Shown: one piece after another, positions 7,025 through 64,000 of the stretch
Layout: every line of letters starts with the position of its first letter
How positions within the stretch are numbered: the stretch's first letter is position 1
NCBI GenBank assembly: GCA_947494995.1
Contig: CANLWY010000009.1
Coordinates: 15,945-79,944, forward strand
DNA from: an uncultured Campylobacterales bacterium
GTDB taxonomy: Bacteria > Campylobacterota > Campylobacteria > Campylobacterales > Arcobacteraceae
DNA length: 64,000 nt
Direction of reading: 5' to 3'
Position numbers and translations under genes: made by a program
The notes under the pieces: generated by a model
Database searches by the model: none
What the model saw: the letters and a program-made list of their open reading frames with translations, nothing else
Told to the model about the DNA's origin: nothing

Positions 7025-7041
7025 AGTTTTAGCTGTTTTGA

Positions 7042-19590: not shown

Positions 19591-19667
19591 AAAATATTGC
19601 AAAATGTTATATTTTTAAGCTAAGTTCCTAAAAGCTGCTAAACTTCTCCAAAAAAGTGGAGAGGTTT

Positions 19668-23219: not shown

Positions 23220-23231
23220 ATATAAATATTG

Positions 23232-23558: not shown

Positions 23559-23881
23559 CTATAGAGTATAGTGACAACTTTTTCAAAGAAGCCAAAAAAC
23601 TATCAAAAAAATACAAGCTTTTAAAGTCAGATTTACAAGAAGCAGTAGAAGAGATAGAAGAGAAAAGAGACTTAGGTGTATCACTAGGCTTTAACCTTTT
23701 TAAAAAAAGAGTTCCAAACTCTTCTATTCCAACTGGTAAAAGTGGAGGTTTTAGAGTTATTATTTATGAGAAAATTGAAGATAAAATAGTTTTAATATCA
23801 ATATATTCAAAAACTCAAAAAGATACTTTAAGTGATGAAGAGTTAAAAGCTATTTTAAAAGAGTATATGGAAACAAAATGA
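23555..23881 (+). CDS. RelE/ParE-superfamily toxin (HigB / PF06296-like)
   Basis: 108 aa. GKSGGFRVIIYEKIEDKIVLISIYSKTQKDTLSDEELKAILKEY is the typical C-terminal signature. The GTG start at 23555 overlaps the antitoxin TGA, and its own TGA overlaps the hsdR ATG. Confidence 0.7.
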   Translation: MTIEYSDNFFKEAKKLSKKYKLLKSDLQEAVEEIEEKRDLGVSLGFNLFKKRVPNSSIPTGKSGGFRVIIYEKIEDKIVLISIYSKTQKDTLSDEELKAILKEYMETK

Positions 23882-36119: not shown

Positions 36120-36139
36120 AATATGTTGCTTAACATATT
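36120..36139. promoter_or_regulatory. inverted repeat AATATGTT-N4-AACATATT, copy 1
   Basis: AATATGTTgcttAACATATT lies in the 189-nt gap upstream of the giant gene. Confidence 0.4.
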
Positions 36140-36183: not shown

Positions 36184-36203
36184 AATATGTTTTAAAACAT
36201 ATT
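36184..36203. promoter_or_regulatory. inverted repeat AATATGTT-N4-AACATATT, copy 2 (perfect 20-bp palindrome)
   Basis: AATATGTTttaaAACATATT has the same arms as copy 1. The two centres are 64 bp apart. Confidence 0.4.
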
Positions 36204-36238: not shown

Positions 36239-36247
36239 TGATATAAT
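36239..36247 (+). promoter_or_regulatory. extended -10 box (TGaTATAAT) for the giant gene
   Basis: TG at 36239-36240 and TATAAT at 36242-36247, 34 nt upstream of ATG 36281. Confidence 0.35.
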
Positions 36248-36280
36248 ATTTTATTAAATTGTATTATTGAGGAAATTATT

Positions 36281-39200
36281 ATGGCAACTGATAATAAATA
36301 TGTAAAGTATCAAAACAAAAGTGTTAAGATTATAGATAAACCACAAATTGATGAAAATATTTCAGTTTATGTAAGACCTGGGGATTTAGTAGATTTTAAA
36401 ATACCAGGAATTAATCTTGAAGATTTAGAATATGAACTTGTAGGTGGTGATATTGTAATTGAAATACCTGACTATGGAACTTTTACTTTTGTATCAATGG
36501 CCTTAATGGGATATAATGATACTCCCCCTAGGTTTGCAAGTAGTTCTGGAAAACAATTAACGCTTAGTGATATTTTATCTGAAGTTGAAGAGATCAATTC
36601 GTTGCCTATTGACTCTTTAGTTTCAAATGCCGAAATTAACATTCCTGATAATACAGCACGAGATAATCAAGAAGGGGATGCAACTGAAAACAATGCTGAG
36701 TCTACTCCTGTAGTAATTGTTCAAGAAGTTGAAGTTGCTCCTGACGAAAACCCTGATGTAGAAGAAACACCAGCAGAATTTGAAATTCCTCCTGTTGAAG
36801 CTCCTGAAGTAATTGAAAATTTAAATACAAGTACGGATGATTCATCAGATTCTAATTCGAAAACAGAAGAATCAATAACAGAAGGTGCAACACCTACTTT
36901 AAATTTTGATATAAATGTACAACATGTTGACTTAACAGATAGTACTACAAGTTCAAAGTTAACTGTTGAAGGTGGAGGTGGTGTCTCTTATGATAATATT
37001 TATCCTGATACAAATGATACTGCTGATAGAGCTTCAATTATCAAGCAAACAGATGCAGAGATTATCGATTATTCTAATATTTCTAATGTTCAAGCAAGTA
37101 GTGTTGTAATAAATGCTGATAGTAGTGATTATTTTTCTTCAGATATTGTTTCAAGAACAATTATTTTAAATCCAGAACAGCCAGAGGGATATGCAATTGA
37201 AAAAATCACTTTGAGTTCTTCTCATGATATTGATGGTTTTGTTGCAGCTTATGGTACTGTAGTAAATCAACAATGGGTTGTGCAAAAAGACAACCCTGAT
37301 ACAGAAGAGATTGATGGATTTACTTATGATTCAACAGGAAATATTCAAGTATCATTCTCTTTAAATAGAACTCAAACAAACCCAAATTTTGAAGTAAATG
37401 TTGAAGCTGAATCGGTTTTTAATATATTAAATGTTTCTGAAGAAAATAGAGCAACTATAGAAGTTCCAGTGGAAACTACACTTACATATGAAAAAGCTTA
37501 TGGAGTAAATATCAAAGAGGTTGAAAATATTAATGACCCTGATGAATACTTTTTTGAATCTTTTACAAACTCAATTGGAGAGGTTGTTGATTCAGGATTT
37601 GTAATAACTACAAATATCAATGACAATATAATTTATGGTTCTAAGGAAGTAGAAAATACAATTAATGGTGGCCTTGCAAACGACACAATTACAACTGGTA
37701 TTGCCAATGACACTATATTAGCAAATGAAGGTAATGATACTATTGTTTCAGGTTTAGGTGATGACTTAGTAGATGGTGGAGAAGGAAATGATACTTTAGA
37801 TTTCTCTTCTATTGATAATCAGAACAATATAGGAATTGATGCAAACTTAATTAATGGAACAGTAGAAGGAGATGGTTTAGATACTATTTCTAATATTGAA
37901 AATATTACAGGTACACAAGATAACGATATATTAACTGGTAATTCTGAGGTTAATATCTTAAAAGGTGAAAATGGAGTAGATACTCTGTTTGGTAATGAAG
38001 GAGATGACACTTTAGAAGGTGGAGCCCAAGATGACACTTTAGAAGGTGGTTTAGGGGAAGATGTTCTAAAAGGTGATTCTGGAAATGATACGGTAAGTTA
38101 TGAAAGAGCAAATGGTTCTGTAACTGTAAATTTAGAAGATGATGCAAATAGTCCAGGACTTGGAAGCGCAAGTGGAGCAGATGGAGTAGATACTCTATCG
38201 GATTTTGAAAATATTATCGGTTCAAACTATGATGATACAATCAATGGAGATGGTTCTGCAAATATTTTAACAACACTAGATGGAAATGATTATATAACAG
38301 GTGGTACAGGAAACGATACTATTGATGGTGGAGATGGTATTGATACTATTGATTTTAGTGCTTCAGGTTCTACTCAAGAGGTTGATTTATCTATAAATAG
38401 AGCAAAAGGTGGAGAAGGTACTGATAGATTATTTAATATTGAAAATGTAATAGGTACAAGTTTTGATGATGAAATAATTGGTGATGATAAAAGTAATCTT
38501 CTTAATGGTGGTGAAGGAGATGATACTATAGATGGTGGTCTTGGAAATGATACTCTTTTAGGTGGAATAGATGATGACATTTTAAGTGGTGGATTAGGTG
38601 ATGATACTATAGATGGTGGTCTAGGTGAAGATTATGCTGATTATAGTAGCGTTACAAGTAATACTCAAAAGGGTGTAGAGGTATCTTTACTTGAAACTAC
38701 TGCACAAGATACAGTAAATGCTGGAAATGATTTGCTTATTGATATTGAAAATTTAATTGGTTCTGCTTTTAATGATACTCTAATTGGAGATGCAAATAAT
38801 AACTCTATTTTGTCTGGAACAGGAAACGATACAATTATTTCAGGGGGAAGTGCAACTTCTGGAAATGATTATGTTGATGGGGGAAGTGGTGATGATTTAC
38901 TAAGCTTCTCAACTTCAGCGGAAGTTATCAATGTTGATTTAGGCATTAGTGACGTACAGACTACAGGAAATGGTGATATTCAAATACGAAATATTGAGGA
39001 TTTAGAGGGTGGTTCAAATAATGATACTCTTTTAGGTAACTCAAGTAGCAATGAATTGTATGGACTTGCTGGAAATGATTTCTTAGATGGAAAAGAAGGA
39101 AATGATACTCTCTTTGGTGGCTTAGGAAATGATAAGTTAGATGGAGGAATTGGTGTAGACTCTATCTTTGGTGAAGATGGAGATGATGTTTTAATTGGTG

Positions 39201-42200
39201 GACTTGGAAATGACATCTTAGATGGTGGAACTGATATAAATGGAGATACTGTTGATTATGAAGAATCAGATGATGCGGTTATATTAACTCTTGCAGAAAC
39301 AAATAATGATGCTTCTGCTTTTGTTGGAGTAGAAGTTGATACTATAAGAAATATAGAGAATATTGAAGGTTCAAGATATAACGATACTCTAGGTGGTAAT
39401 AGTGATAACAATACATTAGATGGAAATCAAGGAAATGATACCTTAATAGCAAGTGATGGAAATGACTTATTAATTGGTGGTGAAGGAAATGACACGATTG
39501 ATTATAGTGCTAGAAATAATAGTATTGAGCTTACTTTAAGTGATAGTAATCAAGCGGATTTATTTGAAAATGGTATTGCCAAAGATAAGATTTATAGAGT
39601 TGAAAATGTAATAGGTTCTACTAACGATGATGCTATTACAGGTAATAGTGATGATAATATATTAAAAGGACAAGAGGGTAATGATACTCTATTAGGAGCT
39701 CTTGGAAATGATACTTTAGAAGGTAATCAAGGAGATGATGTTCTTAATGGAGAAGAAGGAGATGATACTTTATTAGGTGGATTAGATAACGATACTTTAA
39801 TAAGTGGTGCTGGAAATGACCTATTTGATGGTGGAACAGGGGTTGATACTATAGATTTCTCATCTGCAACTATTACTGGTGTAAATGTAGATTTAAGTAG
39901 TTCTGGTATTCAAGAAGTTAGTGGCACTGAAGGTTATGATAGGATTTTAAATATTGAAAATATTATAGGTTCCACTTTTGCAGATACTTTAGTTGGAAAT
40001 GCTGAAGATAATATCATTGATTCAGGAATAGGTAATGATATTTTAAAAGGAAAAGCTGGAAATGATGAACTAATTGCTGGTTTAGGAAATGATACCTTAG
40101 AAGGTGGTGCAGGAGATGATATTCTTAATGGTGGAGATGGTTTAGATACTGCTGATTTCTCAGAAGCTACTCAAAGCGTAAATATTGATTTAAGTGCTAC
40201 AGGAAGTGTTGATATTGGTGCAGGTTTAGGTCAAGATACTTTTATCTCTATTGAAGGTGCAATTGGTGGTGCATATGATGATACAATAGTTGGTACTAAT
40301 GGTGCAAATAATATTGTAGGTGGTGATGGAAATGATACTTTAATCAGTATGGGTGTTGATGATATTACAAATGGTAATGTTGACACTATAGATGGAGGAA
40401 ATGGAACTGATTTAATTAGTTTTGGTTTTACTTCAGATGATATTGCTTTAGACCTTTCAAATAGTGCAGAACAAGCTACTGGTGGTGCTGGTAGAATAAT
40501 TGTTAGCAATGTAGAAAATATTGATGGAAGTTTTGGAAATGATACTTTAACTGGAAATGATGAAGATAATACGCTTAAAGGTGGTTTTGGTTCAGATACT
40601 TTAGTTGGTACAGAAGGAAACGATACTTTAGATGGGGGTAAAAACTCTGATTCTCATAGAATTAGTATCAATGGAGCAAGTTCTGCTTCAATATATACAA
40701 TTATTATAGGAGCTATTACTCTATCTACAGCAGCGGCAGCAGATGATGTAATGCTAGATGATATTGTTAGTCAATTTAATGCTCAAAATAGTGATGGAAG
40801 TTTAGGCGTAATGCTAAGAGATGGAAATGAGTTATTACTTCAAACTACTCAAACTGTAACATTACCAAATGGCGACTTTATTGATACTCCTTCTACTTTT
40901 ATTGATACAGTTGATTATTCTTCTTTTTCAACAGAATCAGTAGATGTAGATATGATAGCGGGAACTGTCGATGTTTCAGATGGTTCACAAGATAGAATTA
41001 TTGATATAGAAAGAGTAGTTGGATCTCAAACAGATGATAATATTGTAGGTGATACAAATAATAATATCTTAGAAGGTCAAGCAGGGAATGATATTATTAG
41101 TGGTGGAGAAGGAAATGACACTATTTTAGGAGAAGATGGAAGCGATACTTTATATGGTGGGGCTGGAAATGATTCTATAAGTGGTGGAAATGATAATGAT
41201 ATTTTATTTGGAGAAGCAGGGGATGATTCTCTTTCTGGGGGATTAGGTAAGGATACACTTTCAGGCGGTGCAGGAGATGATATTGTTGAAGGTGGGAGTA
41301 ATGATGATACTATTATTGCTTCTTTTCAGGATAGTGCAGAAGATGCAGATAATATAAACGATACCATAGATGCAGGAGAGTTAGGTGAAACTATAGGTGA
41401 TACAATTGACTATAGTGGAACAGACTTTACAAATCATAAGATAACAGCAGATTTAACAGCAGGAACAATTGCAGTTGATGGTGGAGATAGTGACCTTGTG
41501 TCAAATGTAGAGAATATTATAGGTACAGATTATAATGATTCTAACAATACAACAATAGAAGATATTATTACAGGTACAAGTGAAGCAAATATCATAGATG
41601 GAAAAGCTGGGGATGACTCACTTTTAGGTGAGCAAGGTAATGATACAATTTATGGTGGTGCAGGATATGACACAATTTTGGGTGCAGATGATTCTGATTC
41701 ATTATATGGAAACTCAGGAAACGACTATTTAGATGGTGGTTCTGGTGATGATTATATTGATGGTGGACTAAATAATGATACTTTAAAAGGTGGTTCAGGT
41801 ACTAATATCTTAGTAGGTGGAAATGGAGTTGATACAGTAGATTATAGTGGTTCAAAAGCAATAGATGTTGATTTATCTTTATCTTCATCTCAAAATGTAT
41901 TTAAAGATAATACAGCAAATGATAGTATCAGTGAAATTGAGAATGTAATAGGTTCTGATTTATCTGATACAATAAAAGGTAATAACCAAAATAACTCACT
42001 ATTTGGTGGGGCTGAAGATGATACTTTATATGCTAGTGAAGGTGATGATACTTTAGATGGTGGAACCAATGGAATAAATGGGGATACGGCTGATTACTCA
42101 AATCAAGCGCAAAATATAGTTCTTACAACAGCATCTGGGACAAGAGATTATTCTGTTACAAAAAATAGTGGAACGGATAGTTTAATTGATATTGAAAATA

Positions 42201-45200
42201 TAAGAGGTTCAAATCTTGATGATACTATGATAGGGGATAGCCTAAATGATACTTTTCATGGTGGAGAAGGAAATGATTTACTTAGAGGAAATGCAGGAGA
42301 AGATACTCTTTATGGTGAAGGTGATAATGACACTATAGATGGTGGAGCTGATAATGACTTATTATTAGGTGGAAGTGGAAATGATACTTTTATATCTTCA
42401 ATAGCTGATGGAAGTGATATTATAGATGGAGGAGATGACCTAGATACTATTGATTATAGTGCTGAGACTAACAGTATTGATGTTACTTTAAATGGAAGTA
42501 GTGATACTTTTGTAAACATTAATTCAACTCCAAATGATCAAATTAAAAACGTAGAAAATATTATATCAGGTAGTGCAAACGATACTTTAATAGGTGACTC
42601 TTTAGATAATACATTTATTGCAAATGCAGGGAATGATACTCTAAGTGGAGCAGGTGGAAATGACTATTTAGATGGAGGAAATGAAGCAGATTCTTCAAGA
42701 GGAAGTGACTGGGTTGATTATTCAACTGCTACTTCAACAGGAATTACAGTAGATTTAAATAAAACAAATGCTCAAACTATTAGTGCTACAGAAGGTAATG
42801 ATACTTTAGTAAATATTGAAAATGTTAAAGGTTCAATTTTTGATGATACTTTAATAGGAGATGATGGGGATAATACTCTTGAAGGTGGAGAAGGTGATGA
42901 CACTTTAAAAGGAAACGCAGGGGATGATTCTTTTATAGGTGGAAATGGTCTTGATACTGTTGATTATAGTGATGTTACTCAAAAACTTGTAATTGATATG
43001 GCATCTTTACCTACAACTGAAATTGCACCTGGGCAAGGAATTGATACATATGATTCAATTGAAGGTATTATTGGTGGAACAAATGATGATACTTTAACTG
43101 GAACTGCTGATGCAAATGTATTAGCAGGTTCAGCAGGAAATGATACTCTAACAGGAAATGGTGGAGATGATACTTTAGATGGAGGAGAAGGAACAGAAGA
43201 TTTAGTTAATTTCTCTTATAGTTCAAATGATATTGTCTTAGACCTTTCTTTAGGGGATGCAGTTCAATCTACAACTGAAGGTAATTTAATAGTTAAAAAC
43301 ATTGAAAATATCCAAGGTGGTAGTGGAAATGATATTTTAACTGGAAATAGTGAAGAGAATACTATCTCAGGTGGTTTAGGAAATGATACTCTATTTGGAA
43401 AATCAAATAATAACCTTTTAGATGGTGAAGGTGGGATCGATACTGCTGATTACTCAGGGATCTCTACTAGTGTTGGAATAGATGCAAATATGAATACAGG
43501 TTTAGTTGAGTATAACTTAACTTCACAAGATACATTAGTAAATATTGAAAATATTAGAGGTACTAAAAATAGTGATACTATTGTAGGAAATACAAGCGAT
43601 AATGTAGTAAACATTTTTGAAGGTATGGGTGGTTCTGATGTGATTTCAGGAGGTTCTGGAAATGATACAATTTATGGGGCACAAAATGGTAATGATTTAT
43701 CAAGTACTGATTTAGCTGATACTCTTAGTGGTGGAGCTGGAGATGATGTAATCAATGGACAAACTGGAGATGATACTTTAAGTGGAGATAGTGGTGCAGA
43801 TACTCTAAATGGTGGAGAGGGAAGTGATACTGCTAATTATTCTTATTTAGATGCAGGTTCAAATGCAGTAACAGTAGATTTCACGACAAATACAGCAAAT
43901 GATTCTACTGATACTGATACTTTAAGTAGTATAGAAAATGCAATAGGTAGTACAAATAATGATAGTTTTATTATGGATTCTTCAACTACTACAGCTAATA
44001 GAATTGATGGTAGAACAGGTGTTGATACTTTAGATTATTCTGATTATATTAATTCAATTACAGTAAATTTGGATAATAATAATGATAATACTGATGGAGT
44101 AAATGGTACTGTTGTTTCAGGAGCAGATACTGATACTGTACTAAACATAGAGAATCTTACAGCTGGGACAAATGATGATATTATTACTGGGTCTTTTTTT
44201 GATAATTCACTATTTGGAAATACAGGAAATGATACTTTCTTTTCAAGTTCAGGAAATGATACTTTAAATGGTGGAACAAATACCGCAACAGGAGATACTG
44301 CTGATTATTCAAATGCTTCTTCAGGAATAGTAGTTTCGGGTGGAAATAGTGTAGATAAAACTACTGGAGGAACTGATACTCTAATTGATATTGAAAAAAT
44401 TGAAGGTACAAACTTCTTAGATATTATGACAGGTGGTTCATCTAGTGATATATTTTATGGAGGAGAAGGAAATGATACCTTAAGAGGTGAAGATGGAGCT
44501 GATACTTTATATGGGGATGAACACAATGATATTATAAGTGGTGGAGCTGACAATGATACTATTTATGGTGGAACTGGAACAGATACTGTTGATTATAGTA
44601 GTAGAAATGAGAGTATAACTCTTACTTTAAATTCAAGCTCTGGAACTGCTTCAATTGGTATATCAGGTGAAGAAGATACTTTATATGAAGTAGAAAATGT
44701 ATCAGGTTCTACTGTTGCAGATAATATTACTGGTGATGAAAATGCAAATGTTTTAGAAGGAAATGCAGGAGCAGATAACTTAAATGGTGGGGCTGGAGTT
44801 GATACTATTAGAGGTGGAGCCAATAATGATATTATAGATGGTGGAGCTGATGGAGACTATATTTATGGTGATAGTGGTGATGATACTATAAATGGAGCTG
44901 ATTTCTCAGGAGATATTATAGATGGTGGAGATAATACTTCTGTTGGTGATACAATTGATTATAGCTCTTTATCAAATGGTATAGAATTAACCTTGTCTGA
45001 ATCAAATTCAAGTGACTCAAATGTAACTGTAAATGGTATACCTGCAAATCATAAAATTATAAATATAGAGAATGTAATAGGTACAGGTTCTATAGATATA
45101 ATAACAGGAAATAGTGAGAATAATACTCTTCAAGGAAGAAATGGTGATGATACCCTAATTGGTGGTGATGGATTAGATTATTTATCTGGTGGAAATGATA

Positions 45201-48200
45201 ATGACTCTATTGAAGGTGGAGCTGGAAATGATACTCTGCATGGAGATGATGGTGACGATATACTTAAAGGTGGAGCGGGAGATGATTCACTTATAGGTGG
45301 AGCTGGAAATGATACTGCTGATTTCTCTGATGCAAATGCTAGTATTACAGTAGATTTAGCAAGTCCTGCACCTATAGGAGCTGGTCTTGGAAGTGATACT
45401 TTTGATTCTATAGAGGGTGTTATTGGAGGTATTTATGATGATGTACTTAGAGGTACAACAGGTCAAAATACACTAATTGGTGGAGCTGGGAATGATACTT
45501 TATATGGATTAGGTTCTTCTGGTGATGCGGATTTCTTAGATGGTGGAGCTGGTGATGAAGATTTTGTAAGTTTTGATTATGCTATTCCTGCTTCTGGGGG
45601 TGTTACTGTTGATTTAAGTAATACAAATGCCCAAAATACAGATGGTGACTTAACAGATGATTTAATCATAAGAAATATAGAAAATGTAGAAGGTGGAGCT
45701 GGTAATGATGTAATTACTGGTAATGCTTCTGATAATACAATAAATGCACTTGACGGAAATGATATTATTAATGGAAGTGGAGGAAGTGACACTATTGATG
45801 GTGGTGCTGATACTACTGGTGATACAGTTAACTACTCTTCTTTAGCTTCTGGAATTACAGTAAATGCTACGGGTGTAGGCTCATATACAGTTACAAAAAC
45901 AGATGGTATTGATACTCTTACAAATATAGAAAATATTACAGCCTCTGGACAAGATGACAGTTTAATTGGAGATGGTTCTAATAATACTTTTTATGGTGGA
46001 GCTGGAAATGATTATTTAGATGGTGCTGGTGGAGATGACTCTTTATATGGAGAAACTGGTAACGACACTATAAGAGGTGGAACTGGAAACGACCATATTG
46101 ATGGTGGAGATGACACAGATACTGTTGATTATAGTTATATTTTAGATGGTGATACTACACCAAATACTGGTGGAGTACAGTTAACTTTAAATGGTTCTAC
46201 TCAAACAAATGCAACTATTGATTCTGATAACAGTGGTACTTTTGGTGGTTCTGATGAGATAGATGAAATAGTAAATATAGAGAATGTTATAGGTTCTCAA
46301 AACAATGATAGTATAACAGGTGATTCAAATATAAATACTATTGTTGGTGAAGATGGTAATGATACATTAACTGGTGCGGGAGGTGCTGATAGACTTGAAG
46401 GTGGAACTGGAAATGATACTTTACAAGGTGATGCAGGAGCAGATAGTTTATATGGAAATGAGGGTAATGATACATTTATTCAAACTGCTACATTAAATGA
46501 TACAACAGGTGATATTATAAATGGTGGAGCTGATATTGATACAGTTGATTATAGTAATGTTGGTGCATATATAAATGTCAATTTAAATGATACAAACCCT
46601 GCAAATGTATACTTAAATGGAAGTATAACAGCTGATCACCAAGTTCAAAATGTAGAAAATATTACTGGTACTATTTTAAATGATACTATAGAGGGAAATG
46701 TTTTTGATAATGTTTTAGATGGACATGATGGAACAGGAGATACTATCTCTTATGAAAATACTAACTCTTCTGTAGTTGTAAATCTTGGAGGAGAATTAAC
46801 TACTCCTGATTTAAATTTAGACTCAACAACTGAAAGTACTATCTTAGCAAATAGTGGTACAGGAGCATTAGCAGGTACAGATACTTTATTAAACTTTGAA
46901 AATATTATAGGTACAGCAAATGCAGATACTCTTATTGGTAATTCAGGTGTAAATACTATAAATGGTGGAGCAGGAGATGACTTACTTCTTGGGGGTGCAG
47001 GAAGTGATAGTTTAATTGGAGGAATAGGTGAAGATACTGTATCTTATGCATTAGAAGCTTCAGTTGATGCTTCTATTAGAGATGCAAGAGGTGAAGTTGG
47101 AGTTGATACTGATCAATTCACAGGTATAGAGAATATTATAGGTTCTACTGGTGATGATATTATAGAAGGAGATTCTTCAAATAATACATTAATTGGTGGA
47201 GCAGGAGAAGATACTTTATCTTATGAAGATGCAAACTCTTCTGATAGTACAGGTGTAACTGTAACGCTATCAGATAGCGCAACACCTTACATAATTGATA
47301 CAATAAACGATGGAACTGACACAATAAGTGGATTTGAAAATATTTTAGGCTCAATTAAAAATGATATTTTATCTGGTAACAGTCAAGACAATACAATATC
47401 TGGTGCTACAGGTGATGATACACTTTCTGGAGGAGCAGGAGTTGATGAGTTAAATGGTGGTACTGGAAATGATACTTTTTTAATAAAAACTGCTGATATA
47501 GATAACTCAATTGATGTGATTAATGGTGATGGAAATACAGATACTTTAGATTATACAGGTATTGGAAACTCTCATTATATAAATGTAAACTTATCAACAA
47601 CTACAGCGCAGATTTTACAGAATGGTACAAATTCATTAGAAGATACAGATACTATAAATAATATAGAAAATGTTAATGGAAGTTCTTCAGGTGATATAAT
47701 AACTGGTGATAATATAGATAATGAATTAAATGGTATGGCAGGAGATGACCAGTTAAATGGTGCAGCAGGAGCAGATACTATAGATGGTGGTGCTGGAGCA
47801 GATACCATAGACGGTGGTGCAGGAGCAGATATCATAAATGGTGGAACTGAAGATGATATTATAGATGGTGGAGCTGATGCAGATATTCTTTCAGGAGAAG
47901 AGGGAGATGACACATTTATTCAAAGGGATGGTGAAACTACTGGAGATGTTATAAATGGAGCTTCTCATGCTACTTTAGGAGATACAGTTGATTATAGTAA
48001 TTTTAACTCTAGTTTAGAAATAAATCTAAATAATACTAATGATGTTAAGGTGAGTGGAGTTAATGATCATCAAATTGTAAATGTTGAAAATATCACAGGT
48101 TCAACTGTGGATGATATTATAACTGGAAATAATCAAGTTAATACTATTTTAGGTGGAGATGGTGATGATACTATAGACGGTGGGCTAGGAGCTGATTATT

Positions 48201-51200: not shown

Positions 51201-54200
51201 GTTATGAGAATTATTCAGAGGATTTAACTATAAATATGGGTGCAGGAGCAGCTGCTACAGGTGATAATGATATTCTTACAAATATCGAGAATGTAAAAGG
51301 TGGTACAGGAAATGATACCTTCTTAACAAATGTTGCAGTTGCAAACCATTTTGATGGAAATGATGGTGTAGATACTTTAGATTTCAGTTCAATTACGGAA
51401 ACAATTGATGTAACTTTAAATGGTGCAACTCAAACAACAATTGATTTTGGAGGAGTACAACCTTCAGACACAGCTGTAAATATTGAAAATATTACAGGTG
51501 GTAGTAATAATGACACTATTATTGGTGATAATGAAAATAATATATTCTATGGAAATGCAGGTGAAGATACATTAAATGGTGTTGATGGAGATGATACTTT
51601 ATTAGGTGGAGCTGATAATGATTCTTTAATAGGTGGAGCAGGACTTGACTCTATTGAAGGTGGAGCTGGAAATGATAATATTGAAGGTGGGTCTGATAAA
51701 GATATTATTTATGGAGATGATTCTGCTAATACTCTAAGTGGTGATGATATTATTGATGCTGGAACAGGAAATGATACTGTTTATGGTGGACAAGGAAATG
51801 ACTCTATTGAGGGTAATGCCAATGATGATAAGCTTATTGGTGGTTTAGGAGTAGATATCATAAATGGTGGAACTGGAACTGATATAATTTATGGTGATGA
51901 TGAGACAAATCAAGGAAATGATGCAGGTTCAGGAGATACATTAAGTGGTGGTCTTGGAAATGATAAGCTTTATGGTGGATTTGGAGATGATACTCTAGCA
52001 GGAAATGAAAATGATGACGAAATCTATGGTGGAGCAGGAACGGATACTGTTGATTATAGAACAGCAACATCAGGAGTTACTGTAGATTTAGGAAATGATG
52101 GTTCTACTTCTCAAAATGTAGGTGGAGGACAAGGACTAGATAAAATTACAGAAGTTGAAAATGTATTAGGTTCAAGTTTTGATGATACATTCTATGCAGA
52201 TATAGCTTCTAATAATAGATTTGATGGTGGAACAAACGCTGGAGTTGAGACTAATTCAGATGAAATAAATGGTGATACTGTTGATTATAGTGATAAATTA
52301 GACCAATCAGGAGATAGTGTTGTTATCGACTTAACAAATGCAACAGCAACAGCAACTGTATATGATGCTAGTACAACTATAACAACTACAGATACTTTAG
52401 TAAACATTGAAAATATCACAGGAACTTCAGGAAATGATGAAATCACTGGTAGTGCAGAGAATAATACTCTAAAAGGAATGGCTGGGAATGATACTCTTCA
52501 AGGTGGAGATGGAAATGATACTTTAGATGGTGGAGCAGGAATTGATAAAGCTATCTATACATATGCAGGAAGTTCAGTAAATATTGACCTTGATAGTGAA
52601 ACAGCTGTTGTAAATGGAACAGATAGTGATACTTTAATTGATATAGAAAATATTGATGGTTCGGCATATGATGATAAAATCATTATGAAAGCTGGAGACA
52701 ATCCAAATGTTATTGATGGAGCAGGTGGAGAAGATACTGTTTCATATGAAAAATATACTACTAATGTTACTGTTGATTTAGGAGATAACACATCTCAAAC
52801 TGTAACGGGTGCTGATAATGATACATTATTAAATATAGAAAATCTTATTGGTGGTACTGGAGATGATACTTTCACAGGGTCTGATGGTATTGATAATAGT
52901 TTAGAAGGTTCACAAGGTGATGATAGCTTTATTGTTTCAAGTGGAAATGACTATATAGATGGTGGAAATGAAGATTCTGGTGCAAGAGGTAAAGATACAA
53001 TTGATTATAGTTCTTTAACAGATGGTGATGCAGATATTTCTACTGGTGGATTAAATGTAACATTAAATGGTTCAAATGTAGTAAATCTTACGGTTGATTC
53101 TGATAATAACGGAACATTTGATGGTTCTGATAAAAGAGATGAAATCATAAATATTGAAAATGTAATAGGTACTCAAAATAGTGATACTATTATTGGTGAT
53201 GATGCAGTAAATACACTTATTGGAAATGCAGGAAATGATATTATAGATGGTGGAATTGATGCTGATACACTTATTGGAGGAACTGGTGATGATACTTTTG
53301 AAGGTGGTGCTGGAAATTTTGATGATGTAATTTATGGTGGAAACTTTGATGGTGTAACTCATACAGATAGTGGAATAGATACTGTTGACTATAGTGCAGC
53401 GGTATCTTCTGTAACAGTAAACCTAAATGATGTATCAGGAAAAAGTGTAGTAGCAGGTGCAACTGGATATGGAGAAAGTATTGATCAAGGTTTAGATTCA
53501 TTATTTGGGATAGAGAATGTTGTAGGTTCAACTTTAAGTGATAGTTTTGTAACTAGAGTAGGTGAGACAAATATAATTGATGGTGGCACAAATGGAGTTC
53601 AGGGTGATACTATTGATTATAGTACTAAAAATACAGCTGTTGATGTAACATTAAATGGTTCTACACTTACAAATGTAGTTATTACAGGCGATAGTGATGA
53701 CCAAATTCAAAGTATCGAAAATGTTATAGGAAGTAGTGTTGCAGATAATATTTTTGGAGATAACCAAGTAAACACATTAGATGGTGATGCTGGAGATGAT
53801 ATCTTATCAGGTGGTTTAGGAAACGATACTATTATTGGTGGAAGTGGGACAAATACTGTTTCATATGCATATTCAACTTCTAGTGGTGTAACTGTTGATT
53901 TAGCATTAGGAACAGGTGTTATAACTGCTTCAGATAGTGATATTTTAACTCAAGTTCAAAATGTAATTGGTACAGATTTTGTAGATGAAATTACAGGAAA
54001 CAGTGAAGTAAATATTTTATCTGGAGGAACTGGAAATGATACTTTCTATAGTTCAGGAAGCAATGACCAAATAAATGGTGGCGATGACAATGACACTATG
54101 GATTATAGTAATAGTACAGGAAATAAAATCCTAGTTGATTTAAGTTCAAGTTCAAATGTAATAGTTGATGAAGCAAGTGGTGATTTTTCAACACCAATTT

Positions 54201-57200
54201 ATACGGATTCATTAACAGATATTGAAAATATTGCTGGAAGTAACAATGATGATACTATAACAGGAAATGCAAGTGTAAACACATTATCTGGAAATGATGG
54301 AGCAGATACTTTAAATGGTCATGGTGGAGCAGATGTTATAAATGCAGGTGCAAATGACGATTTAATTATAATGTCAAATGAAACACATACTATAGGTGAT
54401 GATATAGATGGAGAATCAGGTTTTGATACTATAGATTATCAAGGTTTTACAACTGATGGTCTAACTATTAATATGGCTGGTACAACAGATGTTGATGTTA
54501 CTGTTGGAGCAACTGCTAATCATCATACTTTTACTGGTATTGAAAATATTATTGCAACAAATCAAATTGATAGTATAACAGCTGATGAAAGTTCAAATAA
54601 AATCATAGGTATGCAAGGTAATGATAGTATTGCTGGACAAGGTGGAAACGATATTCTTTATGGTGGAAATGAAGCAAATAATCTAGCATCAAGTGGAAAT
54701 GATACTCTTGATGGTCAAAATGGAGATGACACTCTTTATGGTGGAGATGGCTTAGATAGACTAATTGGTGGAGATGGGAAAGATGTCCTTTATGGAGATG
54801 AGGGAGATGACTCTTTACTAGGTGAAGCCGGAGATGATACTATCTTTGGTGGAGCTGATAATGATAATATCAAAGGTGGTCTTGGTGCTGATGAAATGTC
54901 GGGTAATGCAGGAAATGATACATTTACTTTCCAAAGATCAGATGTTGATGATGACATTATCTATGGTGGTGATAGTACTACTGACAGTGGAATAGATACA
55001 GTTGATTACTCTCAATCATTTAATGGTATGACAATTACTCTTGGTGAAGGTGATGCACAAGGTATTGCAACTTCTGCTGACCAAGGTACAGATTCAATTT
55101 ATGGTATAGAGAATGTTATAGGTTCTGATACTGATGTTTATTCTGATAATATTACAGGAAATAGCGAAGTAAATACTTTAAGTGGTCTTGCTGGGGATGA
55201 TACTATGTATGGACTAGCTGGAGAAGATACCTTATTTGGTGGAGCAGATGATGATGAACTTCATGGTGGGAATGATTCTGATTCTATTGATGGTGGAACT
55301 GGGGATGATAAAATTTATGGTGATGCAGCTGCCGATAATCTAACAGGTGGAACTGGAAATGATACTTTCTTCTTAGGTGCTAATGATGGTTTAGATGTAA
55401 TAGATGGAAATGAAGATAATGATACTTTAGATTATTCATCTATTACAACTGGAACTCCTGAAACTGATGGTATTGTAGTAAGTTTGGAAGGTTCAACTCA
55501 AACAACAGTTACTATAAATTCAGTTGACCAAGACCAAATCTCAAATATTGAAAATGTAGTAGGTACTTCTAATAATGATACATTTACAGGTGATGCAGGA
55601 GATAATACACTAACAGGTGGAGCAGGAACTGATGAAGTAAGATATGATTATGCAACATTAGGTGTAAGTGTAGATCTAGAAGCTGGAACTACAACAGAAG
55701 ATGCCGGAATTGATACCTTAAGTAGTATTGAGAATGTTTTAGGTTCTAGTCACGATGATACTTTTGTAACTGCAAGTGGAGTATCAAATGTTATTGATGG
55801 TGCAGGTCATAGTGATGGTGATACTATTGATTACAGTTCAAGAAATAATTCAATTAATGTAACACTAAATGGTTCAACATTAGAAACAGTTACTGTAACT
55901 GGTGATAATAATGACCAAATTAGAAATATAGAACATGTTACTGGTTCAACTAATAATGATGATATTACGGGAGATGGATTAGATAACACTTTACTTGGTA
56001 TGGATGGTGCAGATGTTCTTTCTGGTAATGCAGGTGCAGATTATATAGATGGTGGAGCTGGAAATGATCAAATTACTGGTGGAACGGGTGCTGACAACTT
56101 ACTAGGAGGAGCCGGTGATGATACTTTTGATGGTAATACTTTTGATGGAGATACTATTAATGGTGGTTCAAACACAACAGATGGTGATACAGTAGATTAT
56201 TCAGCTATTGCAACACATGGTGTAACAGTTGATTTAGATACTACAAATGCAAGTACAGTAACAATAAATACTGTTACTCATACATTAGCTGATATAGAAA
56301 ATGTAGTTGGTACGAATCAAAATGATGATATAACAGGTGATTCAAATAAAAATATTTTATCAGGGAATCAAGGTGTTGATACTATCTTAGGTGAAGAAGG
56401 AAATGATACTATTTATGGAGATGAAGGAGCTGATACTTTAAGAGGAGGATCTGACAATGATGTTATTTATGGTGGTGATGCACTAGATGATAATATGCTT
56501 GATAGTGATACTCTTTATGGAGATGCAGGGGCCGATACTCTTTATGCAGGTGATGGAGATGATGTCTTAATTGGTGGAATAGGAAATGACTCTTTATTTG
56601 GAGGAGATGGTTCTGATACAGTTGATTATAGTTCTTCTACTACTACTATTGATGCAACATCAACAACTTCAATTATTGTTGGTGGGACTGAGATAGATTT
56701 TAGAAGTAGTATAGAGAATGTAATAGGTTCAAATGTTGCTGGAACAGGAGATATTATTTCTGATGTTGATGCAAGTGCAACTTCAAATACTTTAATAGGT
56801 CTTGATGGAAATGATACTATTACTGAGGGTGCTGGGGATGATAGAGTTGAAGGTGGTGAAGGAAATGATACTATTTTTGCAGGTGCTGGAAATGATATTA
56901 TTGATGGAGATGACACTGATGGATTAACAGTAAATGGTACTTCTGATACGTTAGATTTTACAAATCTATTAATTAGTGATGATACAGGTGATACAAGAGA
57001 TGTATCAACTGAGAGTGGAAGTGATTTATATACTGGAGTTGAAATTGACCTTTCTATAACCACAGCCCAAAGAATTCATGCTGAGTTTGGAACAGATACT
57101 ATTACAAATATAGAGAATGTAATAGGAACTGGAAAAGCTGATTATATTGCAGGTAATAATGAGGCAAATGAACTTGAAGGAAGGTCAGGAAATGACTATT

Positions 57201-60200
57201 TAATAGGTCTTGATGGTGCAGATAGTTTTAAAGGTGGAGATGGTCAAGATACTATTGACTTCTCTGCTGGTGGAGGTAGAGTTTTTGTTGATTTAACAAA
57301 AGAACAAACTTTAGGTGATGATACCTCTTATAGAGTTCAAGAAGATGGTTATGGAAATGGAAATAAAGAGTATGTTGATGGTGTAGAACATATTACAACT
57401 GGTGCAGGTGATGACACAGTTTATGGAGATGACCAGTCAAATAGTATCTTAACTGCTGCTGGAGATGATGTTATTAGAGGTGGAACAGCAGCTGATTATA
57501 TTGATGGGGGAACACATGGAATAAATGGAGATACTGTTGATTTTTCTGATTTAGGAACTACAAAAGTTGTTGTTGATCTTGTAAATGAAACTGCACAATC
57601 AGGAAGTGATACTGACCAGATTATAAATATTGAAAATGTCATAGGTACAAGCGAAGACGATACCATTTATGGAGATGCAAATAATAATACTATTCAAAGT
57701 GGTTTAGGTAATGATTTAATCAAAGGATTAGATGGTGTAGATTATATTGATGGGGGAGCAGGTTCTGATACAGTAGATTTCTCTGATGGAACTCAAAAGA
57801 TTGTTGTAAACTTAACAGACATTGCCGCAAATAGAGTTGTAAATGATGGATTTGGAAATAGTGAATATCTTAATGGTGTAGAAAATATAATAGGTACAAA
57901 TTTAGCTGACACAATTTATGGAGATGCAGAAGATAATAAACTTGAAGGTGGACTTCAAGGGGATACTCTTTATGGAAATAGTGGTGATGATACTTTAGTT
58001 GGTGGAGATGGTGCCGATACTTTTAGAGCAGGTACAGGCAATGACATAATTTATGGAAATGCAGAAAATCCTACTAGTGCAGATAGTAGTAGAGATGTTA
58101 TAGATTACTCTGATATAGCAACCTCAATGACTGTAGATTTAGATAATCAAACTGCAAGTGGAATAGGTCAAGGAATTGATACTCTTTATGATATTCAAGA
58201 TGTTATAGGTTCACAAACTGATGATGATATAACTGGAACTCATGGAGTCGAAAACTCACTATTTGGAGCAAATGGAGATGATGTATTCCATGGAGGATTA
58301 GATAATGATGCCATTTATGGTGGAGTTGTAACTGCTGGAAGTCATATTGATAATGGAAGTGATACTGTAGATTATTCATATATAACTGCTGCAGATGGTA
58401 GAGCTATTGATGTTGACTTATCAAGGGATGACTCAAATGCAACTACAAATAATGAAGAAGAGATTAGAGTAATAGGAACTCCTACTTCTTTTGATTCATT
58501 AGAGGGAATTGAAAATGTAATTGGTACTCAAAATGATGATATTATCAAAGGTAGTAACTCTATAACTGAAGTTAATATTTTAGATGGAAATTTAGGAGAT
58601 GATACCTTTTATTCTTCAAATGGTGTAGATAGTTTTATTGGTGGAGATGGTATTGATACATTAGATTTTACAAATAATGGTGGAGTTAGTGTACATGTAG
58701 ATTTAGATCAAGATAAAACTATAGATGATGGATTTGGATATGAAGATTATATTGCAAATGATATTGAAGAGATTATTGGTTCTACAAATAATGATATTAT
58801 AAGAGGTGATTCTGCAAACAATACATTAAAAGGTGGTCAAGGACTTGATCAGATCTTTGGTGGAAGTGGAAATGATAGTATTGATGGAAATGATGGAGTA
58901 GATACCTTAAAAGGTGAAGATGGAGAAGATACACTTCGTGGTGGAGCAGATGGTGACTCAATATATGGTGGAGCTGATAATGATATTATAGATGGAGAAG
59001 CAGGTGATGATACAATCTTCTTTGGAAGTGGAAATGATAATATTACAGGTGGAACAGGAGTTGATACTTTAACTTATGAAGAACAGATTATTACACGTTC
59101 AGGAATTACAGCAACATATAATGATATTGGAGCTTCAATTGATGTTGGAGTAGATGGCACTGATACTGTAACTGATCATATGGAAATATTAAAAGGTACA
59201 GGTCTTACGGATGTTATGACTGGGTACACAGGTACAGATAATGGAAATAGTTATAATGAATCTTTATTTGGACTTACTGGAGATGATACACTAAGTGGTG
59301 GTAGAGGAGATGACTATTTAGATGGAGGAGATGATAACACTGCAGATACTTTGATATTTACAGATGCACAAAATGGTGTAAAAGTTGACTTAAGTGTAAC
59401 TCAAACCTTAGGAGATGATATAACTTATGCAGTTCAAGATGATGGTTTTGGTGACCAAGATTATGTAACTAATATTGAGAATATTACGGGTACAAGTTAT
59501 GTGGATACAATTGGTGGAGACTCAGATGATAACTCAATTGGAGCTGGACAGGGTGATGATACTCTTTTATTATCAACAGGTACTGATATTTTAAATGGAG
59601 AAAATGGATCTGATTGGTTATCTTTAGAAAATATTCAGTCTAATATTGATTTATTAAATGTAACTCATTCTGAAGCTATGAATAATAATGGAACTACAAC
59701 AATAACTGATATTGAAAATATTTTAGATTCTACTACAGATACAAATGATAAACATTTATGGGGAACATATGGGGATAATACTTTTATTACATATACAGGA
59801 ACTGATAGAGTTTATGGAAGAGATGGAAATGATGTAATAGATGCTGGTGATGGCAACGATTTTGTTTACTCAAATGAAAGAACTTCATTAAATGCAATAG
59901 GAACAGGAATTGATACTATAATTGGTGGTGATGGTATAGACCGTTTAGATTATTATAGTCATGGTAATGGGGATAATATTGATGGAGGTATTAGTTCAAA
60001 GGTAATATTACAAGATGCTTCAATAGATACAAACTTTGATTTTGTAGGAGATACAAATTTAACAGCAACTACTTCAAATATTGATGTGTCAGGTCTTAGC
60101 TCTTTAGCAGATGGAACTCATACTTTTGTTCAAGTTACAGATGGTACAGGAAATACAGATTATATCTATCAAAATGGTTCAGGTAATGTAGATTTTGAAT

Positions 60201-63200
60201 ATTTCTTATTAAGTACAGTTGGTGACACTATGATTGGTGATGAAGCTAACAATACAATTAATTCAAACTATGGTAATGATACAATCCTTGGAATGGGTGG
60301 TGAAGATACTATTTATGGTGGATATGGAAATGATATATTATATGGTGGAGCAGATAATGATCGTATAGAAGCTGGAGATGATGTGGACATTATTTTAGGA
60401 GGAATAGGTAATGATATCATTTATGCTGGAAATGATAATGACACTATTTATAATGAAGAGGGTGACGATTTTATTGACGGACAAGCAGGAAGTGATACTC
60501 TTATTTTCAAAGAAGGAACTCAAGGTATTGAAATTGATTTAACTGGAATTACTGATAATGCGACAGATTCTTTTGGTAATCTTGAAACTATAAGAGAAAT
60601 TGAACATATAACAGCTACAGATTTTGTTGATACAATTATTACGAATGATTCATGGAATGTTATTAGAGCTGGGGATGGTAATGATACTATTTATGGTTCA
60701 TTAGGTTCAGATAGCTATTATGGTGAAACGGGAGATGGCGATTTACTTGATTATAGTAATTTAGTAGGAGTAGGAGTAACAATTGAGTTAGAGGATAATG
60801 CTACTATCACTCTTCCTGGACCTGTAGTTTATAATCAAACTATTTTAGGTATTGAGAATGTAAGAGGTAGTGATTCTGATGATAATATAGAAGGATTTAC
60901 AAATGTTAATACTCTTTGGGGTGGTTCAGGTAATGATAGTATATTTGGAGATGCAGAGGCTGATACTCTTTATGGAGATGCTGGTAATGACACTTTAAGT
61001 GGTGGAATAGGAAATGACCTACTTGATGGTGGAGCAGATGAAGATTATGTAGATTATGGTGATAGAGCAGATAGAATTATTGTTGATTTAGATGCTTTGG
61101 GTAATGATAGTGTTAGTGTTGGTGTATTTGGTGAAGTTGATACAATTGCTAATATTGAAAATATTAGAGGTAGTACAGTAGCAGATACAATAACTGGTAA
61201 TGATTTAGAAAATACAATATTTGGAGATAGAGGAACTGATACTTTAAATGGTGAAGGTGGGAATGACTATATCCATGGTAATGCTGATGAAGATAGTATT
61301 ATTGGTGGAGCAGGTGATGATATTCTTAATGGTGGAACAGGAGATGATTCTTTTATTACTTCTTTAGGTGATGGTGATGATATCATGAATGGTGGAAACA
61401 ACATTGATATTATAGATTATAGCTCAAGAAGTAGTGTAAATATAACTCTTTTAGATGATGGTGCAACATTTACTTATGGAACAACAGCTGTTGAAACTGG
61501 AGAAGACACAATTTCAAATATTGAGGGAATCATAGGTACAAATGCAAATGATTCAATTACAGGAAATAATCAAGATAATATCTTCTATGGAGGGGGTAAT
61601 ACTGATATATTAACTGGAAATGAAGGTTCTGATACACTATATGGACAAGATGGTGATGATACTTTAATTGGTGGCTCAGGAGATGATACTCTTGATGGTG
61701 GAAATGGAGATAATGATTGGGTTCATTTTGGTTCTTCACCTTCTATAACTGTAGACTTGAGACCTGAAGAAGGGTCAGCTACTGGAGAAGGTACAGATGT
61801 AATTAGTAATATTGAACATGTTAGATTTACAGATGGGGATAATCTTGTTCAAGGAAGTACAGCAGATAACTCTTTTGTAGCTGGAAATGGAAATGATACT
61901 TTAAGCTATGATGGAGCTACAGGAAGTATTGATGTTGATTTTGATGCAGGAACAGTAACTACAACTACAGATGGAGCTGATGTATTTGTAGAGTTTGAAA
62001 ACTTTATAGGTACAACTGTTGGTAATGATACTTTAAGAAATGACTCTGTAAAAGCAGATAGTGACTTTGCTACATTTGATGCTTTAGGTGGAAGTGATAC
62101 TGCTGATTATTCTGCTAGTTCACAAAATATAGGTGTTACAGTAAATGGGGCAACTATTACTCTTGAAGATGATACTACAACTCCAACTAATGATGATGTT
62201 TTATCAAATTTTGAAGTTTTACAAACAGGTTCAGGAAATGATGTCTACGAAATTCAAGATATTGGAGCTATTACAACATTAGATGCAAATGGTGGTACAG
62301 ACTCATTAAGTGTTACTGGAACAAATGTTGATTTATCAGCTGTTCAGTTATTAAACTTTGAAGAAATATTAGCTAAAGATGGTCAAACAGTTACTATAAA
62401 CACGGTTGTAATTACAGGTAGAACATTTACATTACATACACAAGGTACTGGAAAAATTATCGTAAATGCTTCATCTACTCCATCTGAACATGATTACACT
62501 AATATAACAGTTAACAATGAAGATCCAGCTGGAAGAATTGAGTTAAATGTTGATAATACACTTGATTTAACTTCACAAAATATTGAAGGCTTAAGTGGAA
62601 ATATTTTTGATATTTTTGATATAGCTGCTAGTGAACAACTAACTTTAGGAGCTTCTCAGATAGATGGAGAAACTGTTGATATAGCAGGTAATGGTAATTT
62701 GGTATTAGAAGCTACTACAACAGCAAGTGACCATAATTTTGATAACTTGACAAAAAGTGGAAGTGGTGATATTACATTAGATGTAGATGGAAGTGTAGAT
62801 TTAAGTTCAGTTGATTTAGGTGCTGTAAATAGATTTGATATTTCAGCAAGTCAAGTTTTAACACTTCAATCTTCGCAAGTAAGTGGAGCAACACATATTT
62901 TAACTGGAGCTGGTAATCTTCAAGTAGATGCAAGTAATGCAAATAGTACAATTGATTTAAGTACTCTTGTAAGTGACAGTTTTTCAGGAGATTTAATTGT
63001 AAATGATGGAACAGGTAATAATATTATTACTTTAAACAATATGGATTCAACTACAAACTTAACAGGTGGAGATGATAATCTAACACTTGGAACAGGTACA
63101 AATATTGTAAATATTGTTTCTTCAAATCTTTCAAGTGCAGATACAATTACTGCTACTGCTGGTTCAAATGATACTTTAAACATAACAACAGCAGGAAGTG

Positions 63201-64000
63201 TTGATTTAACATCTGTAAATCAAGTTGAGACTATTAATTTAGCAGATGGAACAAACACTGTAACAGTTGGTGCAAATACAACTATAATTAATGGTGGAAC
63301 GGGTGCAGATACATTTAATATTGCAAAAGCAAACTTAAGTAGTACAGATGATATTGATGGTGCAGGTGGAAGTGATGTTATAAATATCACAGATAATGGT
63401 GGAGTATATACAGATTCAGATTTTGCAAATATTACAAGTATAGAAACTTTAAATTTAAGTGACACAGGAAGTGATACTATTACTTTAGGTGATACAAATA
63501 TACAAGCTTCAGGTATAAATACAGTAAATGCAAGAGGTGGAGACGATACCATTACTATTATTAATACAAGTGGTTTAACAACTGTTGATGGTGGTATTGC
63601 AGGAAGTGATAATCTTGTAATTGGTGTTGATGGAATGAATTTTACTTCTACAACAATTACAAACTTTGAAATAATAACTGTAAATGGAAATGTTGACCTA
63701 AGTTCTAAGTTTGATTCAAATGTTAGTAATATTGTTATTGCAAATACTAAAACATTAACAGTAGATGCTTTGGATATAAATAATGATGCAATTTCTATAA
63801 ATACTAATACATCAGGAGAGTTAATAATAACTGCTGATACATCAACTCCATCAAATAATGAATTTGGCGGTTTAGTTAATACTGGAAGTGGAGATATTAC
63901 TTTAGATATTAATGCTAGTGTTGATTTAAGTACTGTAAGTTTAGGTGATGTAAATGCATATGATATAAGTGCGGGAGAAACTCTTACTTTAGATTCATCT
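36281..64000 (+). CDS. giant RTX-type calcium-binding repeat protein, 5' part only (over 9,240 codons, continues past the window)
   Basis: ATG 36281 follows GAGGA (36269-36273) and an in-frame TGA at 36239-36241. I hand-translated this frame at 36281-36400, 37562-38900, 40619-40920, 47759-47900, 49982-50040, 50519-50890, 52021-52450 and 62200-64000 and found continuous sense protein each time. The track lists no stop-terminated + ORF after 36091, as expected for an ORF with no stop in the window. The N-terminus reads [22 protein letters not shown]... It is followed by dozens of GGxGxDxLx nonapeptide runs such as GNDTLDGG and GDDTLEGG. Confidence 0.9.
37660..62110 (+). repeat. coding repeat field: RTX nonapeptide runs alternating with 'DYS ... 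V.L ... DTL..IEN..GS...D.I.G' modules
   Basis: Examples: 37666-37800 [46 protein letters not shown], and 47759-47893 with five consecutive GGAGADTID-type units. The IENV/I-GS motif recurs at irregular intervals of about 250-500 nt (37890, 38205, 38440, 38745, 39350, 39600, 39950 and onward). Confidence 0.85.
62200..64000 (+). repeat. second repeat class inside the giant ORF (Thr/Ser/Asn/Val-rich, no GGxGxD)
   Basis: A unit of the form ...S.H.F..L...[23 protein letters not shown]...LTL.SSQ is seen at about 62467-62670, 62707-62890 and 63829-64000. Confidence 0.6.

Follow-up and report, generated by a model that had tools for sequence, protein, structure and literature searches.

The stretch of DNA analysed here (the window) comprises 64,000 nucleotides of contig CANLWY010000009.1 from an uncultured Campylobacterales bacterium (assembly GCA_947494995.1), and its last part, from position 36281 to the final base, is a single open reading frame (ORF) for a giant repeats-in-toxin (RTX) protein. 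The gene is real and uninterrupted; it is an intact, conserved and chromosomal gene of a marine-type Arcobacteraceae (Campylobacterota), and its product is a bona fide RTX calcium-binding protein. In our reading this protein is probably exported by a type I secretion system (T1SS), folded by calcium ions outside the cell and held on the cell surface as a fibre that would serve as an adhesin or matrix fibril.

Translation from the ATG at 36281 on the forward strand (giant ORF, 36281-64000) gave 9,240 codons without a stop and was still open at the end of the window. Given the base composition of this region (35% A and 31.5% T) a stop codon is expected about every 11 codons, and the probability of meeting none over 9,240 codons is about 1e-373 (log10 P = -373). 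In a six-frame translation each of the remaining five frames of the same interval carried between 297 and 1,589 stops, and their longest open runs were 43 to 259 codons. Therefore, a shadow ORF or an ORF open by chance was rejected.

The nearest in-frame stop upstream of the start is the TGA at 36239-36241, and no ATG, GTG or TTG lies between the two. The Shine-Dalgarno sequence GAGGA was read on the forward strand at 36269-36273, 7 nt upstream of the ATG. An Arcobacter sp. metagenome-assembled genome (MAG; L003) showed an identical TGAGGAAATTATTATG context at this site. Moreover, residues 1-21 of the giant protein match the N-terminus annotated for an Arcobacter orthologue (P0025) without a single difference. 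The start at 36281 is thus supported by the Shine-Dalgarno site as well as by the orthologue N-termini. A preliminary description of this DNA had claimed the open frame, the Shine-Dalgarno site, the upstream stop and the omission of the frame from the ORF track supplied with the sequence, and all four claims held. The track looks empty over this part of the window because the ORF lister drops any ORF that extends past the source end.

The product encoded within the window has a mass of 944 kDa and contains 1,755 aspartate and glutamate residues versus 217 lysine and arginine residues. Several traits of T1SS substrates are present, namely a pI of about 4.05, no cysteine in 9,240 residues and no N-terminal Sec signal; the N-terminus is not hydrophobic, with a maximal 12-residue hydropathy of 0.6 within residues 1-60. 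The G+C content is 33-35% within the giant ORF versus 24-32% upstream, and from 38001 to 62000 the GC skew takes strongly positive values (+0.32 to +0.45). Both features are due to the load of glycine and aspartate codons on the coding strand (GGT/GGA and GAT) and not to a foreign origin, as the locus is syntenic in relatives.

Domain anatomy of the product

The giant protein starts with an acidic non-repeat region of about 450 residues, as first described, and the 28-residue acidic peptide quoted from it at that time was found at residues 154-181. The region comprises three parts. The first is a beta-rich domain (residues ~4-103; 36290-36589, forward strand), which was modelled by AlphaFold2 with a predicted local distance difference test score (pLDDT) of ~80-90. 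This is the best-conserved part of the family, with 46-83% identity to relatives over residues 1-125. It had no match in Pfam, in NCBIfam at relaxed thresholds or in a sequence search of the PDB. A Foldseek search with the model of residues 1-125 returned no retention domain and only a weak resemblance to the beta-roll of block V of CyaA (TM score 0.43, E 0.02).

The second part is an acidic linker of about 180 residues that is rich in proline and glutamate (residues ~104-286; 36590-37138, forward strand). It is predicted to be disordered (pLDDT <50), and its sequence is variable and poorly conserved. It is followed by an immunoglobulin (Ig)-like beta-sandwich (residues ~290-445; 37148-37615, forward strand; pLDDT ~75-85) that had no Pfam match. 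In Foldseek this domain weakly matched the fimbrial subunits AggA and PsaA and other Ig-like folds, with a best E of 7.6e-4.

Most of the protein is formed by the RTX field (residues ~455-8,650; 37643-62230, forward strand), which consists of about 74 beta-roll blocks with a median length of about 101 residues. Each block is built of a DTxDYS...VDL... anchor segment followed by three to eight GGxGxDxLx nonapeptides. Overall, we counted 74 IENxxGS-type anchors and 333-587 nonapeptide-like cores, among which a spacing of nine residues was dominant. The preliminary description had expected the repeats to belong to the Pfam family HemolysinCabind (PF00353), and the matches to this family were overwhelming: E = 3e-290 and 935 bits in 62 stretches for residues 501-4500, and E = 1.3e-228 and 738 bits in 45 stretches for residues 4501-8500 (107 profile stretches in total; gathering cut-off 23 bits). 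Among the solved structures of the PDB, the repeats were closest in sequence to the RTX domain of CyaA (7usl_C, E 6e-58). The earlier notion of a huge nonapeptide field was thus correct in its substance. However, the field is not uniform, as its ~74 blocks contain non-nonapeptide segments, and it does not reach the window edge but stops near residue 8,650.

A single non-RTX insert of about 90 residues (residues ~1456-1545; 40646-40915, forward strand) interrupts the field. This segment is low in glycine, aspartate and asparagine and carries the most hydrophobic stretch of the protein, with the hydropathy maximum at residue 1469 and a hydrophobic core that continues ...SQFN...LLLQT. The orthologues P0024 and P0025 keep this insert, and multiple modules like it are found in the more distant relatives P0032, P0035 and P0036. 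Searches in Pfam, NCBIfam (relaxed thresholds) and PDB sequences revealed no family or structure match for it.

Downstream of the RTX field a C-terminal non-RTX region begins (residues ~8,651-9,240 and beyond; 62231-64000, forward strand), which is made of beta-strand-rich modules and is cut by the window end. Residues 9153-9240 repeat residues 8781-8865, which corresponds to a super-repeat of about 372 residues, and therefore this repeat region is truncated by the window edge. The region had no match in Pfam, NCBIfam or PDB, relaxed thresholds included. Its modules are shared with a 1,106-residue family member (P0009) and with the C-terminal ORF of another locus (L005).

In other members of the family we identified a conserved C-terminal domain of about 90 residues (...NIETL...W...L.LD...Q..K..I...Y.I...VV) that ends in ...(M/L)(Q/A)VV. 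It was present in six complete small members of 1.5-2.2 thousand residues (P0052, P0054, P0060, P0061, P0063 and P0082), in P0009 and in the ORF at 8049-11045 of L005. No model in Pfam or NCBIfam covers this domain, which is probably the family's secretion domain. Nothing in the window product matched it, as would be expected if the C-terminus of the giant protein lies beyond the window, and this agrees with the earlier statement that the C-terminal secretion signal lies outside. Colinear alignments with relatives project the end of the gene to about residue 10,400-11,300, i.e. 3.5-6.5 kb past the window. The full protein probably comprises about 10,000-11,500 residues, 9,240 of which are encoded in the window. 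Searches of genome and metagenome contig collections with exact 60-mers toward the 3' end gave no match, and protein-guided scans with the last 601 residues gave pattern matches and no relatives.

Relatives, synteny and conservation

We defined the family by its N-terminal architecture, i.e. the domain of about 105 residues, the acidic linker and the second beta domain, followed by RTX blocks. A search with the N-terminal 470 residues yielded 84 relatives after clustering at 50%; E was <=1e-30 for 30 of these, and all named relatives belong to Arcobacter, Halarcobacter, Malaciobacter or Arcobacteraceae. Database entries of these genera named 'calcium-binding protein' or 'Ca2+-binding RTX toxin-like protein' (e.g. 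XPV69995.1, WP_423298271.1 and MDC0933511.1) are orthologues or family members. They share with the window protein N-terminal domains that are 38-59% identical over 470 residues, the insert and the colinearity of the blocks. In contrast to the window copy, the entries are fragments or are split by a frameshift or nonsense codon, and none has been characterised.

The search method affected which relatives came to light. In a word-indexed protein search no hit exceeded about 2,620 residues; P0024 (4,415 residues) was missed, and so was the 7,303-residue second ORF of the Halarcobacter orthologue, even though an exact part of this ORF served as the query. Giant proteins are thus under-reported by this type of search. 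A full HMMER library search did return P0024 and other relatives of 3,200-4,400 residues but not the 7,303-residue ORF.

Upstream of the giant gene lie carB, an ORF of 147 residues with weak resemblance to Sua5/YrdC and a gene for a DUF234 ATPase, which are the neighbours named in the preliminary description. The same locus of carB, the 147-residue ORF and the DUF234 gene was found in L003, in Halarcobacter sp. (L004, CP182352.1) and in Arcobacter sp. (L007, PKUJ01000010.1), and the window carB is about 90% identical to the carB genes of all three. The window therefore stems from another, related member of the Arcobacteraceae. The orthologous giant proteins are colinear. Their in-register identity is 45-58% over 3,300-4,200 aligned columns compared with 30-33% off-register, which indicates that the individual blocks have remained distinct from one another since the species diverged. 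Such block-wise conservation speaks in favour of purifying selection across the entire array and against concerted evolution. Taken together, the window protein fits a family of giant RTX-block proteins of the Arcobacteraceae in its N-terminal architecture, its locus and its colinear blocks, and among the family sequences compared it is the longest uninterrupted stretch.

Proposed export, surface retention and alternative readings

On the basis of the domain anatomy and of genes found beside relatives we propose the following course for the giant protein. The acidic, cysteine-free chain without signal peptide would stay unfolded in the low-calcium cytoplasm. It would be exported C-terminus first by a T1SS of the LssB/HlyB type encoded elsewhere, with recognition through the C-terminal domain of about 90 residues that would follow past the window. 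Outside the cell the blocks would fold in sequence on several hundred calcium ions and thereby ratchet the chain out. A beta-roll extends by about 0.48 nm per 18 residues, so that the ~8,100 residues of the field would amount to a stiff fibre some 0.2 micrometre long. At its far end the non-RTX C-terminal modules would make contact or bind a ligand. The N-terminal domain, the acidic linker and the Ig-like domain would remain at or in the outer-membrane channel and hold the fibre on the surface, where it would serve as an adhesin or matrix fibril.

We infer export by a T1SS mainly from the gene neighbourhoods of family members. P0009, in which both the C-terminal modules and the terminal domain are found, is directly followed by a gene for an LssB-type ATP-binding cassette (ABC) protein with a C39-like domain and by a gene for an HlyD-family adaptor. 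L005 encodes a member of 2,235 + 998 residues that carries the N-terminal domain as well as the C-terminal modules, and 2 kb downstream of this RTX gene lies an LssB-family ABC exporter that scored above the NCBIfam cut-off. In two further loci (L008, 8334-16979; L009, 1-8785) small members with the same N-terminal domain adjoin a TolC-like protein of the outer membrane with a SPOR domain. This cluster also encodes a MotA/ExbB-like protein, a protein of 217-234 residues, a GGDEF-EAL protein, a protein of 178-191 residues and a Sel1-repeat protein. In NCBIfam, the GGDEF-EAL protein came closest to LapD (E 3e-35), though far below the cut-off. The cluster may represent a Lap-like control module in Campylobacterota with no recognisable LapG.

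Several observations weigh against a T1SS-exported fibre held on the surface. In the 36 kb upstream within the window (positions 1-36,000), Pfam and NCBIfam searches found no T1SS gene for an ABC or membrane fusion protein and no TolC, LapG or LapD gene, as had been noted before. The C-terminus and all downstream DNA lie outside the window. In NCBIfam and Pfam, residues 1-120 and 1-500 of the N-terminal region matched no retention-module or BapA-prefix model, with calcium repeats as the sole hits, and the fold of its first domain is only weakly beta-roll-like. Moreover, an Ala-Ala dipeptide, as in LapG-type cleavage sites, is absent from the first 300 residues of the window protein and of the orthologues P0024 and P0025. 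Three orthologous genes elsewhere are all interrupted: one is frameshifted in a G7 run, another at an A-rich site, and the third contains an in-frame TAA, so that the gene may be dispensable or frequently turned off. Expression of the giant gene is putative, and the adhesin function is proposed by analogy.

The same N-terminal features, together with the absence of LapG and LapD from the window, would also suit a product that is exported in the same way but then released, as a secreted matrix, an S-layer-like protein or a calcium-dependent extracellular scaffold. In that case the conserved N-terminal region would serve elsewhere, e.g. in self-assembly or chaperone binding. We regard release as rather unlikely. 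Within the family, conservation is highest in the N-terminal ~105 residues, and the succession of a domain, a long disordered linker and an Ig-like sandwich resembles that of known retention regions (PMC12077191). Besides, the small members with this N-terminal domain adjoin LapD-like and TolC-like genes.

The interruptions in relatives raise the question of whether the gene is decaying or phase-variable and mostly silent, with its long frame in this strain being a chance of sampling. Indeed, the gene is interrupted in every other genome inspected (L004, L005, L006 and L007). In L004 it is called as 4,415 + 7,303 residues with a total of about 11,700 and is split at a G7 run (23221-23227). The gene of L007 comprises 1,838 residues, an in-frame TAA (~15518) and then 8,082 residues, with 9,980 codons in total. 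L006, a more distant relative in another genomic context, encodes 3,533 + 5,487 residues with a frameshift at ~20590, and the break in L005 lies in a G9 run (8054-8062). The G7 run of L004 is the sole one in 33 kb and the G9 run of L005 the sole one in 15 kb. Breaks at such poly-G tracts are either homopolymer sequencing errors or phase variation as in Campylobacter. Nevertheless, we consider a decaying or mostly silent gene improbable. The frame is intact here over 27.7 kb, and the 45-58% identity block by block across genera implies long-term purifying selection. In addition, the breaks in MAGs are mostly located at homopolymers, which are frequent sites of sequencing errors. For the window copy itself a poly-G phase switch was rejected, since the 64-kb window contains no run of G or C of six or more.

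It is highly improbable that the protein is an RTX toxin, pore-forming or multifunctional, of the HlyA, CyaA or MARTX type, even though its repeats have their closest solved relative in the RTX domain of CyaA and NCBIfam RTX hemolysin models gave partial matches below threshold. The RTX_toxin model matches cover the nonapeptide part only and reach 54-56 bits versus a cut-off of 1000. Furthermore, the protein lacks a hydrophobic pore-forming domain, as only one stretch of 19 residues reaches a hydropathy of 1.67, and the Pfam and NCBIfam scans revealed no effector domain, cysteine protease domain (CPD) or MARTX A/B repeats. No acyltransferase gene lies upstream in the window. Given the missing pore-forming, effector and CPD domains and the repeat-only model matches, an HlyA- or MARTX-type toxin was rejected.

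An assembly artefact, i.e. a chimeric or mis-expanded repeat array that creates a false long frame, can be practically dismissed: the region is repetitive at the protein level and most database relatives are contig-end fragments, but a chimera would neither hold a single frame over 9,240 codons nor match the independent assemblies of other species block by block. The longest exact DNA repeat inside the giant ORF is 32 nt, Tandem Repeats Finder reported only short 27-nt arrays with 63-88% matches, and the direct-repeat DNA families are 60-75% identical. With repeats this short and copies this divergent, sequencing reads place uniquely. Assembly collapse was rejected for the same reason, as about 72 protein blocks compared with their best partner showed at most 56% identity (median 49%).

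Compared with known systems, the surface fibre proposed here shares features with two groups of RTX proteins. The RTX domain of the adenylate cyclase toxin CyaA of Bordetella pertussis (PDB 7usl and 5cvw) likewise consists of successive beta-roll blocks parted by non-nonapeptide segments. The folding of the CyaA RTX region depends on calcium, proceeds from the C- to the N-terminus and drives T1SS export. However, the giant protein has about 74 blocks compared with five in CyaA and is about six times longer. It lacks the adenylate cyclase and the hydrophobic and acylated domains of CyaA, and its N- and C-terminal domains are different.

RTX adhesins are held on the surface by an N-terminal retention domain and are released by LapG under the control of LapD and cyclic di-GMP (PMC12077191). 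The giant protein resembles the T1SS-exported adhesins LapA, MpIBP, FrhA and AhLap in being very large, acidic and calcium-binding and in lacking a Sec signal. Like these adhesins, it has a small N-terminal domain followed by a linker and an Ig-like domain, which is an analogous layout only, and a variable and probably ligand-facing region near the C-terminus. Its small relatives adjoin TolC-like and LapD-like genes as in LapA-type systems. In RTX adhesins the long extender is formed by tandem Ig-like domains, and the nonapeptides make up a short C-terminal roll (PMC12077191), whereas in the giant protein the RTX field of ~8,100 residues is itself the extender. Searches of the giant protein detected no Pfam family of the Big/Ig type, and neither a BTLCP protease nor a GGDEF-EAL gene was found in the window. 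Some small family members carry 'AAKP' at the border of linker and second domain and sit beside a LapD-like gene. For the giant protein itself LapG-controlled release was rejected, as the first 300 residues contain no Ala-Ala. The protein may thus work as an RTX adhesin, but it is not a member of the LapA family, since it matches no retention module by sequence model or fold and has no Ala-Ala site in its first 300 residues and no Ig-like extender.

RTX repeats and type I secretion are well known, and the finding extends a known class without adding a new kind of system. New is a very large member of an uncharacterised Arcobacteraceae family, with noteworthy variations in its extender, which is all RTX, and in its end domains, which carry no annotation. 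One might go further and see a distinct class of T1SS surface fibres in Campylobacterota, with an all-beta-roll extender of ~74 non-homogenised blocks in place of Ig-like domains, a new retention module, unrelated in sequence, made up of the N-terminal domain, linker and Ig-like sandwich, its coupling to cyclic di-GMP through TolC-like (+SPOR) and LapD-like proteins in small relatives and poly-G switching in some; this seems doubtful to us at present.

The preliminary description had ranked the protein among the largest bacterial proteins, which was overstated. Predicted bacterial proteins reach 85,804 residues in Omnitrophota, and many with more than 10,000 residues are on record, spread over several phyla. 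Cag_663 and Cag_665 of Chlorobium chlorochromatii are giant calcium-binding, hemagglutinin-like proteins. The window protein shares with the Omnitrophota and Chlorobium giants the extreme length, the repetitive beta-rich build and a presumed role in cell-surface interaction, and with those of Chlorobium also calcium binding. It is, however, several-fold smaller, and it is unlike them in repeat chemistry and probable export route. The Omnitrophota proteins differ by their numerous transmembrane regions and by type II secretion genes nearby. At about 1 MDa or more the giant protein would still rank among the largest gene products of its genome, and its production would therefore be a major investment for the cell. 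As a surface fibre it would probably be the main determinant of the attachment of marine Arcobacter-like bacteria to surfaces, particles or hosts. Genes of this type are systematically fragmented or missed as a result of ORF listers that require a stop, contig breaks and homopolymer frameshifts. Therefore, the intact 27.7-kb copy is a useful annotation reference for the family.

Upstream region and neighbouring genes

The giant gene is preceded by an AT-rich intergenic region of 189 bp. In this region we identified two perfect 18-bp palindromes of the form ATATGTT-N4-AACATAT at 36121-36138 and 36185-36202, with a spacing of 64 bp. The pattern occurs nowhere else in the 64-kb window, where 0.08 matches would be expected. 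Similar pairs were present 5' of the orthologous genes in L004 (~9832-9909, with the same spacing of 64 bp) and L003 (~9806-9912, 87 bp), and variant forms of the palindrome were found upstream in L007. The palindrome pair is a candidate for conserved operator sites of the giant gene.

The 36 kb upstream contain, besides carB, a ThiF gene, a type I restriction-modification system, a gene for a methyl-accepting chemotaxis protein, transporters and housekeeping genes. A search against Rfam revealed no RNA family in the window. The restriction-modification system is complete, with hsdM at 20409-21971, hsdS at 21981-23219 and hsdR at 23878-26796, and a RadC-like gene (19656-20330) is located just 5' of hsdM. 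Between ThiF and carB lie a pretoxin-HINT ORF (29365-30264) and an overlapping ORF with Sel1 repeats and a peptidoglycan-binding domain (30261-30980); L004 and L007 carry other genes at this position. Further upstream, the C-terminal 60 residues of a 312-residue ORF (7539-8477) matched the zinc-protease domain Peptidase_M10 (matrixin) with an E of 6e-10, and the match is confined to this part of the ORF.

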